A stretch of 64,000 nucleotides of DNA from Eledone cirrhosa (lineage: Eukaryota): positions 286,502,001 to 286,566,000 of the forward strand of contig OZ024742.1 in assembly GCA_964016885.1 (NCBI GenBank), read 5' to 3'. How positions within the stretch are numbered: position 1 is the first letter of the stretch; each line of letters starts with the position of its first letter. The notes under the pieces were generated by a model, which saw nothing but the letters and a program-made list of their open reading frames with translations, ran no database searches and was not told where the DNA came from. Made by a program: the position numbers and the translations under genes. Of this stretch, positions 4,752 to 17,898 are shown one piece after another.

Positions 4752-7700
4752 AACACCATCTACACTACCGACAACACTACCACCACCACTAACACCATCT
4801 ACACTACCAACAACACTACCACCACCACTAACACCATCTACACTACCAACAACACTACCACCACCACTAACACCATCTACACTACCGACAACACTACCAC
4901 CACCACTAACACCATCTACACTACCAACAACACTACCACCACCACTAACACCATCTACACTACCAACAACACTACCAGCACCACTAACACCATCTACACT
5001 ACCAACAACACTACCACCACCACTAACACCATCTACACCACCAACAACACTACCACCACCACTAACACCATCTACACTACCAACAACACTACCACCACCA
5101 CTAACACCATCTACACCACCAACAACACTACCACCACCACTAACACCATCTACACTACCAACAACACTACCACCACCACTAACACCATCTACACCACCAA
5201 CAACACTACCACCACCACTAACACCATCTACACTACCAACAACACTACCACCACCACTAACACCATCTACACTACCAACAACACTACCACCACCACTAAC
5301 ACCATCTACACCACCAACAACACTACCACCACCACTAACACCATCTACACTACCGACAACACTACCACCACCACTAACACCATCTACACCACCAACAACA
5401 CTACCACCACCACTAACACCATCTACACTACCAACAACACTACCACCACCATTAACACCATCTACACCACCAACAACACTACCACCACCACTAACACCAT
5501 CTACACTACCAACAACACTACCACCACCACTAACACCATCTACACTACCAACAACACTACCACCACCACTAACACCATCTACACTACCAACAACACTACC
5601 ACCACCACTAACACCATCTACACTACCACCACCACTAACACCATCTACACTACCGACAACACTACCACCACCACTAACACCATCTACACTACCATCAACA
5701 CTACCACCACCACTAACACCATCTACACTACCGACAACACTACCACCACCACTAACACCATCTACACCACCAACAACACTAACACCACCACTAACACCAT
5801 CTACACTACCAACAACACTACCACCACCACTAACACCATCTACACTACCAACAACACTACCACCACCACTAACACCATCTACACTACCAACAACACTACC
5901 ACCACCACTAACACCATCTACACTACCAACAACACTACCACCACCACTAACACCATCTACACTACCGACAACACTACCACCACCACTAACACCATCTACA
6001 CTACCAACAACACTACCACCACCACTAACACCATCTACACTACCGACAACACTACCACCACCACTAACACCATCTACACCACCAACAACACTAACACCAC
6101 CACTAACACCATCTACACTACCGACAACACTACCACCACCACTAACACCATCTACACCACCAACAACACTAACACCACCACTAACACCATCTACACTACC
6201 AACAAGACTACCACCACCACTAACACCATCTACACTACCAACAACACTACCACCACCACTAACACCATCTACACCACCAACAACACTACCACCACCACTA
6301 ACACCATCTACACCACCAACAACACTACCGCCACCACTAACACCATCTACACTACCAACAACACTACCACCACCACTAACACCATCTACACTACCAACAA
6401 CACTACCACCACCACTAACACCATCTACACTACCAACAATACTACCACCACCACTAACACCATCTACACCACCAACAACACTACCACCACCACTAACACC
6501 ATCTACACTACCAACAACACTACCACCACCACTAACACCATCTACACCACCAACAACACTACCACCACCACTAACACCATCTACACTACCAACAACACTA
6601 CCACCACCACTAACACCATCTACACCACCAACAACACTACCACCACCACTAACACCATCTACACTACCAACAACACTACCACCACCACTAACACCATCTA
6701 CACTACCAACAACACTACCACCACCACTAACACCATCTACACTACCAACAACACTACCACCACCACTAACACCATCTACACTACCAACAACACTACCACC
6801 ACCACTAACACCATCTACACTACCACCACCACTAACACCATCTACACTACCAACAACACTACCACCACCACTAACACCATCTACACTACCAACAACACTA
6901 CCACCACCACTAACACCATCTACACTACCACCACCACTAACACCATCTACACTACCGACAACACTACCACCACCACTAACACCATCTACACTACCAACAA
7001 CACTACCACCACCACTAACACCATCTACACTACCGACAACACTACCACCACCACTAACACCATCTATACCACCAACAACACTACCACCACCACTAACACC
7101 ATCTACACTACCAACAACACTACCACCACCACTAACACCATCTACACTACCAACAACACTACCACCACCACTAACACCATCTACACTACCAACAACACTA
7201 CCACCACCACTAACACCATCTACACTACCAACAACACTACCACCACCACTAACACCATCTACACTACCAACAACACTACCACCCCCACTAACACCATCTA
7301 CACTACCAACAACACTACCACCACCACTAACACCATCTACACTACCAACAACACTACCACCACCACTAACACCATCTACACTACCACCACCACTGACACC
7401 ATCTACACTACCGACAACACTACCACCACCACTAACACCATCTACACTACCAACAACACTACCACCACCACTAACACCATCTACACCACCAACAACACTA
7501 CCACCACCACTAACACCATCTACACCACCAACAACACTACCACCACCACTAACACCATCTACACTACCAACAACACTACCACCACCACTAACACCATCTA
7601 CACTACCAACAACACTACCAGCACCACTAACACCATCTACACTACCAACAACACTACCACCACCACTAACACCATCTACACTACCAACAACACTACCACC

Positions 7701-8740
7701 ACCACTAACACCATCTACACTACCGACAACACTACCACCACCAGTAACACCATCTACACTACCAACAACACTACCACCACCACTAACACCATCTACACTA
7801 CCAACAACACTACCACCACCACTAACACCATCTACACCACCAACAACACTACCACCACCACTAACACCATCTACACCACCAACAACACTACCACCACCAC
7901 TAACACCATCTACACCACCAACAACACTACCACCACCACTAACACCATCTACACTACCGACACACCACTAACACCATCTACACCACCAACAACACTACCA
8001 CCACCACTAACACCATCTACACTACCAACAACACTACCACCACCACTAACACCATCTACACTACCAACAACACTACCACCACCACTAACACCATCTACAC
8101 TACCAACAATACTACCACCACCACTAACACCATCTACACCACCAACAACACTACCACCACCACTAACACCATCTACACCACCAACAACACTACCACCACC
8201 ACTAACACCATCTACACTACCAACAACACTACCACCACCACTAACACCATCTACACTACCGACAACACTACCACCACCACTAACACCATCTACACCACCA
8301 ACAACACTACCACCACCACTAACACCATCTACACCACCAACAACACTACCACCACCACTAACACCATCTACACTACCAACAACACTACCACCACCACTAA
8401 CACCATCTACACTACCAACAACACTACCACCACCACTAACACCATCTACACTACCAACAACACTACCACCACCACTAACACCATCTACACTACCAACAAC
8501 ACTACCACCACCACTAACACCATCTACACTACCAACAACACTACCACCACCACTAACACCATCTACACTACCAACAACACTACCACCACCACTAACACCA
8601 TCTACACTACCAACAACACTACCACCACCACTAACACCATCTACACTACCAACAACACTACCACCACCACTAACACCATCTACACTACCAACAACACTAC
8701 CACCACCACTAACACCATCTACACTACCAACAACACTACC
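4752..8740 (+). repeat. 39-bp minisatellite (AACACCATCTACACTACCAACAACACTACCACCACCACT), roughly 100 copies
   Basis: Highly homogeneous tandem unit; it produces the 1374-aa NTIYTTNNTTTTT ORF. Confidence 0.97.
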
Positions 8741-9169
8741 ACATCAACACTGCCACCACCATCACCAACAACAACACTACCACCAACACCAACTCTACCA
8801 ACAAAACAAACACTAGCACCACCATCGCTACCATCGCCACACCACCAGTACCACCAACATCACAATCAACAGCAGTAGCTACTACACACGCACACATACG
8901 CGCGCACATACACACAAACGCATACATAGGCGTGCGCGCGCGCGCACACACACACGCATACGTGTTTCCACTATCGCCATTACCTATACAATCTCCCCCA
9001 CCCCGGTACCAGCCGTACCACCGCTTCAACAACACTGTAATCATCAGTCCCACCAATAGCAACATCAGTACCCGCCACACACATAAAGTTTCTTCCTCCT
9101 CCCCACATCCCCACCATTACCACGGATAAAGTTCCTTTCCCCAGTCAATAAAAGTTCTTCCACCCGAGT

Positions 9170-9790
9170 TTTAAAGATCTTTTCACCCGTTTTATAAAAA
9201 TCCTTTCACCCGTTTTATAAAGATACTTCCACCCGTGTTATAAAAATACTTCTACCCGTGTTATAAAGATACTTCTATCCGTTTGATAAAGATACTTCCA
9301 CCTGTGTTATAAAGATATTTCCACCCTGTCAATAAAGATATTTTCACCCATGTTATAAGAATCCCTTCCTCTGGTTAATAAAGATATTTTGCAATAAAGA
9401 TCCTTTCACCCGTGTTATAAAAATATTTTCACGCATGTTATAAAGATATTTTCACGTATGTTGTAAAGATATTTTCCTCCGCGCAATAAAAATCCTTTCA
9501 CCTGGACAATAAAGATACTTTCACTCAAACAATAAAAATCCTTTCACCCGTGTTATAAAAAACCCTTCCCTGGTCAATAAAGATATTTTTGCCCGCACAA
9601 TAAAAATCCTTTCATCCATGTTATAAAAATATTTTCACGCATATTATGAAGATATTTTCCCTTGTGTTATAAAGATATTTTAACGTGCGTTATAAATATA
9701 TTTTCACCCAAGCAATAACGATCCTTTCAGCCGTGTTATAAAAACTTTTCCGTGCAACGAATATTCGTCCACTCGTGCGATAAAAGATAA
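9170..9790. repeat. Degenerate ~22-23-bp tandem repeat (ATAAAGATACTTCCACCCGTGTT-like)
   Basis: Recurrent ataaagata/ataaaaatc...cacccgtgtt units. Confidence 0.85.
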
Positions 9791-12674: not shown

Positions 12675-13050
12675 AAAGTTCTATTTAAAATTGTTGGGAT
12701 ACAACAAGCAAATATTATTATAACTGATATAAAGCACTCGACAAATATTTGGAGTAGATATACGATATTAATAAATGGAAACTATATTTATAAAACCATA
12801 TTTATTTCATTATATATATTTCAAGGATACCAAGTTAAATCATGGTATGCCTTCATCAGACAAAATACAATATATAACAGTTTTACAAATAGATATTGAC
12901 GTACCCTTTCAAAAAGGTGAACGTTATTTTTGGAGGCCATCCGGATGTCTGATGAAGGCATACCATGATTTAACTTGGTATCCTTGAAATATATATAATG
13001 AAATAAATATGGTTTTATAAATATAGTTTCCATTTATTAATATTGTATAT
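12672..13050. mobile_element. (TA)n-embedded PLE-like/HHR element with 105-bp inverted arms (12758-12862 and 12946-13050)
   Basis: Near-perfect inverted repeat around an 83-bp spacer; related sequence at 24150-24230 and 61225-61360. Confidence 0.8.
12803..12867 (-). ncRNA. Type I hammerhead ribozyme motif
   Basis: Minus strand: TATTTTGT-CTGATGA-AGGCATACCA(loop)TGGTATCCTT-GAAA-TATATA-TA-ATGAAATA. Helix I is 8 bp (2 GU); helix III is the palindrome ATATATAT. Confidence 0.8.
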
Positions 13051-15558: not shown

Positions 15559-15561
<3 letters not shown>

Positions 15562-15685
15562 CGTTTGTATATGTATAATAAAGCCAAAACAAAGCCAAAA
15601 CAATGCATTGTTTTGGCTTTATTATACATATACAAACGTTTATACCTCATTACACAAGGCTTCAAGTGAACTATAACTTCCTCCT
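15559..15685. mobile_element. Short fold-back copy of the 36429-36865 element (family A)
   Basis: Palindrome centred on CAATGCATTG; sequence matches 36429-36510; (TA)n on both sides. Confidence 0.8.
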
Positions 15686-15905
15686 ATATGTATATATATA
15701 TATATATGTCTTATTAACAACCCACTTTCCACCGATTAACCTCGATGTCACGTGTTCGATTCTTTTTGAATTTGCCACAGACACAGAGGCAGTGATTTTC
15801 TCAATGGCTAGGAAGTAAGTCCACGCTTTGCTACTTCCTATTCACTGATTTATTTTTAATAAGCTTCCAGTGTCCTCGCTTTGCCTGGAACTTATATGAG
15901 AATTG

Positions 15906-15987
15906 ACTTTCCTGATGACGGGATGTTTCTCTACACCTTCTTCGGAAGATGTATCTACTCCATTCCAGAAACTAATTAGTTGGAAGT
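15906..15987 (+). ncRNA. Type I hammerhead ribozyme motif with an extended stem II capped by C(UUCG)G
   Basis: ACTTTC-CTGATGA-C-GGGATG..TACA-C-CTTC-TTCG-GAAG-A-TGTA..CATTCC-A-GAAA-CTAATTAG-TT-GGAAGT. Helix I is 6 bp; helix III is the palindrome ACTAATTAGT. Confidence 0.85.
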
Positions 15988-16035
15988 GATATTTTAGTAA
16001 GTAAGTTAATTTTATAATTTTCTTATCTTACGTCT

Positions 16036-16098
<63 letters not shown>

Positions 16099-16279
16099 AC
16101 ATGAATGGAAGTATGCACACGTACACACACATATATACATATACATATGTATATAACATTCATAATAATATTCAATATATATATATGAGTAAAATCGAAG
16201 TTGCAGCTGCGATAAGGAGTTTTCCAAATCATCTCTTCTGAGACTGGCATATATATATATCTAAGTCTAAAGTTTATCT

Positions 16280-17862: not shown

Positions 17863-17898
17863 TCTTCTGATGAAGGACTAGCGTCCGAAACGTTAAGA
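17863..17898 (+). ncRNA. Minimal PLE-type hammerhead motif
   Basis: TCTT-CTGATGA-A-GGAC-TAGC-GTCC-GAAA-CG-TT-AAGA, in a ~140-bp island between (TA)n runs. Confidence 0.8.

Follow-up and report, generated by a model that had tools for sequence, protein, structure and literature searches.

A type I hammerhead motif is present at positions 15906-15987 of the window, the stretch of 64,000 nts of Eledone cirrhosa DNA analysed here. Judging from sequence comparison, the motif very probably lies in a lone 5′-truncated copy of a non-LTR retrozyme family with a unit of ~520 nts, whose predicted ribozyme would work, though slowly. The family is likely to be a new and large one among metazoan non-LTR retrozymes, carrying a predicted ribozyme of the Penelope type that is probably dimer-dependent. 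Its description adds a large retrozyme family with several subfamilies, in which natural variation shows which positions of the ribozyme are free and which are fixed. No new class is involved, since elements of this kind and most of the unusual core traits have been published before.

The hammerhead motif of the window

All motif parts named in an earlier note on this DNA were found at the coordinates given there. Two extra nucleotides between core and stem II, and a distal part of helix I with its five added pairs, were absent from that note and are included in the following list.

15906-15911 (5′ strand) / 15982-15987, + strand: helix I, five Watson-Crick pairs and one U.G
15899-15903 / 15991-15995, + strand: distal helix I, five pairs past a small internal loop
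15912-15918, + strand: CUGAUGA catalytic core, with N7 = U
15919, + strand: extra nucleotide C15919, between A9 and G10.1; C in 168 of 176 variants
15920-15966, + strand: stem II overall, a long stem of 47 nts
15920-15925 / 15961-15966, + strand: basal 6 bp of stem II, including one G.U
Between the basal 6 bp and the 4+4-bp distal stem, + strand: pyrimidine-rich internal loop of stem II, 6x7 nts
15932-15935 / 15950-15953, + strand: UACA/UGUA of stem II
15937-15948, + strand: CUUC-UUCG-GAAG, with the UUCG loop at 15941-15944
15967, + strand: extra A15967, between C11.1 and G12; A in 175 of 176 variants
15968-15971, + strand: core GAAA
15971-15980, + strand: 10-nt palindromic helix III, its first A being A15.1; predicted to pair between two ribozymes
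15979-15981, + strand: GUU triplet; cleavage predicted at 15981/15982, unit position 466/467

The core positions C3 U4 G5 A6 N7 G8 A9, G12 A13 A14, A15.1-U16.1 and H17 are all present. C15919 and A15967 lie opposite each other between the core and stem II, flanking G15920-C15966, and can alternatively be read as a C.A mismatch at 10.1/11.1. Within the small loop of helix I, position 15904/15990 is U.U in the window copy and A-U in many other copies.

Taken alone, this copy is unremarkable. Its description as a best-formed hammerhead was an overstatement, the window copy being a lone truncated fragment without a tandem partner ribozyme. The 102-nt stretch around the motif folds no better than shuffled sequences (z -0.47), its minimum free energy fold differs from the hammerhead, and the helix probabilities reach only 0.2-0.66. 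Helix III is unfavourable in the monomer, where a 3-bp hairpin costs +1.5 kcal/mol, compared with -9.0 kcal/mol for the 10-bp intermolecular duplex. The Rfam hammerhead models gave no match at the gathering score over the whole window and none at E<=10 over 15600-16200, for which the long stem II is a likely reason. Because the window copy is unremarkable in folding and is not matched by Rfam, the case for the motif rests on comparison among copies.

Conservation of the ribozyme among copies

The variant set comprised 176 distinct motifs from 249 overlapping loci. Some positions in these motifs are fixed by the retrieval patterns, which is true neither of the extra A nor of the 3′ strand of stem II in the pattern for three older stem-II types. 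This pattern, with 5,666 matches and none in the reversed control, fixes only the 5′ strand of stem II, and the 3′ strand follows accordingly. Among the 176 variants, pair 2 of stem II takes all four Watson-Crick forms (G-C 94, A-U 51, U-A 14 and C-G 13) and pair 5 is mostly U-A (112) or G-C (59).

Covariation was measured on 30 variants hand-picked for divergence out of 111 distinct ones. In this hand-picked set, 93.9% of the pair cells hold standard pairs and 28 cells carry changes on both sides; none of 500 shuffles reaches either the paired fraction or the double-change count, and slid controls are 40-52% paired. Two of the five covariation measures were unexceptional, being equalled in 42 and 297 of 500 shuffles. 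In the distal part of helix I, a compensatory change from UA to AU occurs at one pair in 3 of the 30 aligned variants. Covariation hence supports an arrangement of three helices open at helix I, in which helix III itself shows no covariation. The stems are thus conserved among copies, with compensatory changes in stem II, and these covarying stems support a conserved RNA structure.

N7 is the sole core position that differs between subfamilies, being C in 20 and A in 1 of the 176 variants. H17 is U in 165 of them and the palindrome is exact in 171, partly because it was fixed by the search patterns. The G10.1-C11.1 pair is found in 170 variants, but the extra A intervenes before G12 in 175. 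The natural variants therefore provide a ready set of constructs for asking whether this extra A is tolerated.

The C(UUCG)G apex had been taken as a sign of function, a view that is supported only in part. A UNCG tetramer persists in the apical segment of 163 of the 176 variants, the first match being UUCG in 135, UACG in 18, UGCG in 9 and UCCG in 1, with five of the UGCG matches sitting in the stem ahead of a UUCG loop. The C-G closing pair, in contrast, is confined to the subfamilies nearest the window copy; the apices of other subfamilies read A(UUCG)G, U(UACG)U, UGCG or UCCG, and a few have no UNCG. Similarly, the extended stem II, which was said to be unusual, is so when compared with 56 published motifs of Penelope-like elements (PLEs), but not within this genome, since other hammerhead families, counted in the flanks of loci carrying the unit, have stem-II segments of up to 52 nts.

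Conservation is spread over the unit. In 13 compared copies, one of which carries a deletion in the core, the ribozyme span is no more conserved than the rest, with 40 of 82 invariant columns compared with 260 of 439. Across subfamilies that are only 70% identical, the core nucleotides, a free N7, the palindrome and H17 are kept, as would be expected if catalysis were selected.

The repeat unit and its insertions

The motif was described as lying in an island flanked by TA, at about 15710-16036, and this island was found between two (TA)n tracts. Its features and those of its surroundings are listed below.

15685-15706: left (TA)n target tract
15707-16041, + strand: island, unit positions 191-521 plus TTATA; 5′-truncated, ending at the "short" fixed 3′ end
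15746-15754, + strand: TGTCACGTG motif, nearly invariant in 11 subfamily representatives
15997-16006, + strand: GTAAGTAAGT motif, just 3′ of the ribozyme, with GTAAGTA invariant in 11 representatives
16042-16095: right (TA)n target tract

The island is 99% identical to a full unit at another locus (L005). It is indeed unrelated to the other families of the window, which holds no second copy and whose other hammerheads belong to other families. The window holds only one arm of the family, a short-ended one that meets TA on both sides and contains one ribozyme; it is probably a dead-end product.

The full unit is 521 nts long, non-coding and repeated head to tail, with up to 4 units in a row in the sampled loci. 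Measured from cut to cut, 76 units span 507-571 nts, and were reduced to 11 subfamily representatives that are 70-90% identical. No internal region separates the units, from which the lack of an LTR/PBS/PPT structure is judged. The representatives share no conserved small ORF, their longest ATG ORFs being of 27-67 aa and unshared. Folded as a circle and compared with 25 shuffles each, three of four units proved far more stable, with z of -5.4, -4.2 and -4.8, and that of L134 gave -1.7. Outside the ribozyme, the TGTCACGTG and GTAAGTAAGT sites are among the best-conserved parts of the unit in the 11 representatives. TGTCACGTG is an E-box-like motif and a candidate internal promoter element, and GTAAGTAAGT is a splice-donor-like motif. 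A retained intron was considered: all 11 representatives keep the donor-like motif unchanged, and no conserved acceptor was found in them.

The copy number, which the earlier note left to be established, is high. A search of the own genome returned 2,112 candidates, of which 40 were scored and nearly all proved 97-100% identical. The pattern CTGANGA-N42..56-GAAACTAATTAGTH has 10,744 matches genome-wide and none in the reversed control, so that the motif is not due to chance, and patterns specific to the young subfamily gave 232 and 243 matches; all these pattern counts are of motifs, not loci. A search for relatives with the palindrome, a shorter stem and a link to an ORF gave 56 matches, and 29 of the 30 fetched were of the same family, mostly with internal deletions. 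L213 (G000:C3:353100171-353100222), which has the same 10-nt palindrome with a GUA site in an unrelated context, was placed outside the family.

Elsewhere in the genome, the family occurs as head-to-tail arrays and as insertions in (TA)n whose two arms mirror each other and whose 3′ ends lie at two fixed positions. Of 200 arms, each with a 5′ junction of its own, 91 have their 3′ end at unit position 116-129 and 92 have it at 509-521; both classes of 3′ end usually run into (TA)n, and the 5′ ends are scattered. The 97 head-to-head pairs include 73 with one end of each kind, 1 with two long ends, 5 with two short ends and 18 that end elsewhere. In one region (G000:C1:349.32-349.39 Mb), copies of a single two-armed insertion follow each other at intervals of about 12 kb, as parts of a larger tandem duplication.

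Arms of the same insertion differ from each other by 1.41% and from arms elsewhere by 2.57% (n=44, p 2e-11), and in a second subfamily by 2.99% and 4.51% (n=14, p 0.003). The two arms of an insertion thus resemble each other more than they resemble arms at other sites and derive from the same source, unless they were homogenized later, as could have happened by conversion between inverted repeats. Consequently, the idea that the palindrome pairs RNAs of different loci to supply the two arms is not supported, and no clear case of an arm pair of mixed subfamilies was seen among the head-to-head pairs.

The predicted cut site leaves no mark on these ends. Arms starting exactly there number 2 of 183, with no step in the truncation rate, and in a 3′-anchored sample none of 72 arms stops within 5 nts of it. 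Moreover, the 16 matches with a non-T before the downstream sequence resolve into 2 junctions at the cut site, 1 deletion and 13 point variants of H17. The cut site as a template end was thus rejected as evidence, arm ends not being enriched there. As copies read through the predicted cut site, the template would have been intact at this bond, being either a re-joined circle or an uncut multimer. Arm lengths rarely go beyond two units, and those of the short-ended arms are not exponential (KS p 0.009); they fit a finite linear multimer as well as a circle, hence a circle is not proven. A scar of RNA editing was sought as an A>G strand bias in 229 and 77 segments of two subfamilies, and none was seen (p 0.51 and 0.70).

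In the mechanism proposed here, tandem copies would be transcribed, perhaps from an internal promoter, and two ribozymes would pair through their palindromes to form a 10-bp helix III, with slow cleavage after GUU. The dimer step and the cleavage are predicted from the folding energies and from published PLE ribozymes. The unit-length RNA would then be closed into a circle, or an uncut multimer may serve. A GIY-YIG/RT Penelope-like protein would break (TA)n, and DNA synthesis might start on both sides of the break, primed at two fixed sites that are AT-rich and ~121 nts apart. Such priming from both ends would give two mirror-image arms of one source, which is the footprint observed. A further proposal, rather unlikely in our judgement, is that the family forms its own attenuated obligate-dimer hammerhead subtype tuned for slow cutting, whose circle or multimer would template two Penelope RTs at one break. 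The features ascribed to such a subtype, and just as doubtful in this role, would be the fixed C/A core insertion, a conserved pyrimidine loop of stem II that docks onto the helix I internal loop, and the UNCG apex.

It is also conceivable, if improbable, that the unit is a retrozyme-like non-autonomous PLE whose hammerhead is weak or inactive, its fold acting as a structure for packaging or RT binding and linear uncut multimers acting as template. The extra A before G12, the GUU site, the poor folding of the monomer, the lack of a trace of the cut site in copy ends, the finite arm lengths and the about equal conservation over the whole unit would all agree with this, as would the low in vitro activity of PLE ribozymes (PMC4209133). 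Perreault et al. considered motifs with a mispair adjoining the core to be probably inactive and discarded them. However, the core, the free N7, the palindrome and H17 are retained between subfamilies with only 70% identity. In addition, some active natural ribozymes are mismatched at the base of stem II, according to the available passages of PMC7229834 and of Perreault et al.; among metazoan non-LTR retrozymes, the axolotl HHR_Amex2 carries a basal mismatch in helix II and functions in dimeric form. A working, slow ribozyme is the preferred reading.

Known retrozymes and Penelope-like elements

The family resembles the metazoan non-LTR retrozymes portrayed in the available passages of PMC7229834 and 10.64898/2026.07.22.740005, which are likewise non-coding head-to-tail units with a type I hammerhead, a GC content of <50%, thousands of copies, a self-paired predicted circle and PLEs alongside. 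According to these passages, most such families have seven units at most. The unit of 507-571 nts exceeds the 150-450 nts given in PMC7229834 and lies inside the 51-972 nts given in 10.64898/2026.07.22.740005. The family differs from those of the same two sources, as far as their available passages go, in that its ribozyme is of the PLE type and theirs is canonical; no description of dispersed two-armed (TA)n insertions was found in these passages. Of the retrozyme dimers assayed in vitro by Li, Clavereau and Pollet in 2026 (10.64898/2026.07.22.740005), only 1 of 9 was cleaved.

The ribozyme itself is closer to the hammerheads of PLEs, whose consensus is CUGANGA-H-G...C-GAAA-N-palindrome-NUH with a helix II of at least 6 bp (PMC4209133). 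Shared with them are the extra nucleotide after A9, G10.1-C11.1, a long helix II and the palindromic helix III. In the same paper, GUU occurs in 15 of the 56 aligned motifs, counted by eye, a 10-nt palindromic helix III is found in an Aedes PLE motif, and AGAAA appears in 1 of the 56 rows, probably that of Cotesia, the row assignment being uncertain. Unlike the simple 4-8-bp hairpins of PLE motifs (PMC4209133), stem II spans 47 nts here, with a conserved internal loop and a UNCG apex; also unlike PLE hammerheads, the A before G12 is fixed family-wide and no ORF is attached. The available passages of PMC3138052 merely list GUU among cleavable sites, and those of PMC13282606 make no mention of hammerhead, ribozyme or retrozyme. 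In the literature searched, no study was found in which a nucleotide inserted between C11.1 and G12 had been tested. Hence the extra core nucleotides, GUU and the 10-nt palindrome have published precedents and a long stem II is common in this genome; what appears distinctive, from the sequences compared, is the combination of an A before G12 that is fixed throughout the family with the conserved internal loop and the UNCG apex.

The insertions also recall the EN+ PLEs of the Neptune type, as described in the available passages of Craig et al. 2021 (PMC8557442), with partial tandems, an inverted 5′-truncated copy, a tail at one end only and microsatellite targeting. These passages mention non-autonomous tandem PLE derivatives in Chlamys, and give the tail as 30-40 nts, compared with ~121 nts here. 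The insertion footprint supports the little-tested proposal that Penelope-like enzymes mobilize animal retrozymes.

The linkage to PLEs, for which the earlier note suggested a check, is indirect. The PLE-type motif, the presence of PLEs in the same loci and the shared footprint support it, but the unit is non-coding and is never a PLE terminal repeat in the 249 loci. With one PLE protein as probe, none of these overlapping loci, out of >10,000 sites, shows the unit flanking an RT and GIY-YIG ORF in sense. PLE coding pieces are found in 18 of the 249 loci and are related to a PLE with a C-terminal GIY-YIG domain, the Pfam match to GIY-YIG being weak (E 0.0008, below the curated cut-off). From their motifs, we assume that these local PLEs with C-terminal GIY-YIG are Neptune-like. 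They carry a small hammerhead of their own, which differs from that of the unit, and run into (TA)n at a 3′ end that is either short or tailed, following the same two-ended rule as the unit. A nearly full-length but stop-interrupted example, with a C-terminal GIY-YIG and its own small hammerhead, lies on the minus strand of L154 at 5960-9716 (G000:C3:152410000-152419900); its protein pieces have no match anywhere in the window. In all but one case, PLE pieces are separated from the unit by TA or other sequence. The exception, at L154/L020, is a tailed 5′-truncated PLE arm joined head-to-head without TA to a short-ended unit arm; this candidate chimeric insertion is a single case and could be a deletion. 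The ends of the unit show no likeness to those of local PLEs when compared by eye, and the loci sampled revealed no autonomous partner with sequence in common with the unit.

The same observations bear on the highly improbable reading of the island as an orphan pseudo-LTR (pLTR) of an autonomous PLE whose ORF-bearing copies fell outside the sample. A PLE-type core (extra nucleotide after A9, G10.1-C11.1, palindromic helix III and GUU), copies arranged as inverted repeats and partial tandems and tailed at one end, as described for PLEs, and promoter-like and splice-donor-like motifs in the unit would suit a pLTR, and Xenopus retrozymes are derived from pLTRs according to the available part of 10.64898/2026.07.22.740005. 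Against this, units follow units with no PLE coding sequence in sense between or before them in the 249 loci, which represent ~250 of >10,000 sites, and the 18 loci with PLE coding matches hold PLEs with a different ribozyme and different ends. Finally, a repeat of satellite type that spreads by recombination of DNA and contains a hammerhead-like motif by chance would fit the tandem units, the missing Rfam match and the absence of an RNA-editing scar, but is hardly credible and largely refuted by covariation and insertion polarity, given the dispersed, short, 5′-truncated polar insertions with fixed 3′ ends in (TA)n, the compensatory changes and the 10,744 matches compared with 0 in the control. 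The retrozyme family with a Penelope-type ribozyme is thus the reading preferred here.

Other hammerheads and repeats occur nearby. A strict scan of the window found two more long-stemmed hammerheads, at 12859 and 61320 (both on the minus strand), each with an 8-bp helix I, a long stem II and an 8-nt TA palindrome, and a relaxed scan added a third motif at 17867 (plus strand), compact and with a 4-nt palindrome. The flanks of L001-L159 together with the window (660 kb of overlapping loci) contain 41 distinct hammerhead-like motifs, which belong to many other families. Several of them have U.U or A.A at the base of stem II, their palindromes reach 16 nts, and one group carries 5-7 extra nucleotides between stem II and GAAA. 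Upstream of the island, window positions 15560-15685 hold a 33-bp perfect inverted repeat (15560-15592 / 15608-15640) followed by ~45 bp, within the same (TA)n run. This repeat has a very high summed depth in contigs of three runs, and is therefore probably a short two-armed insertion of another repeat family.
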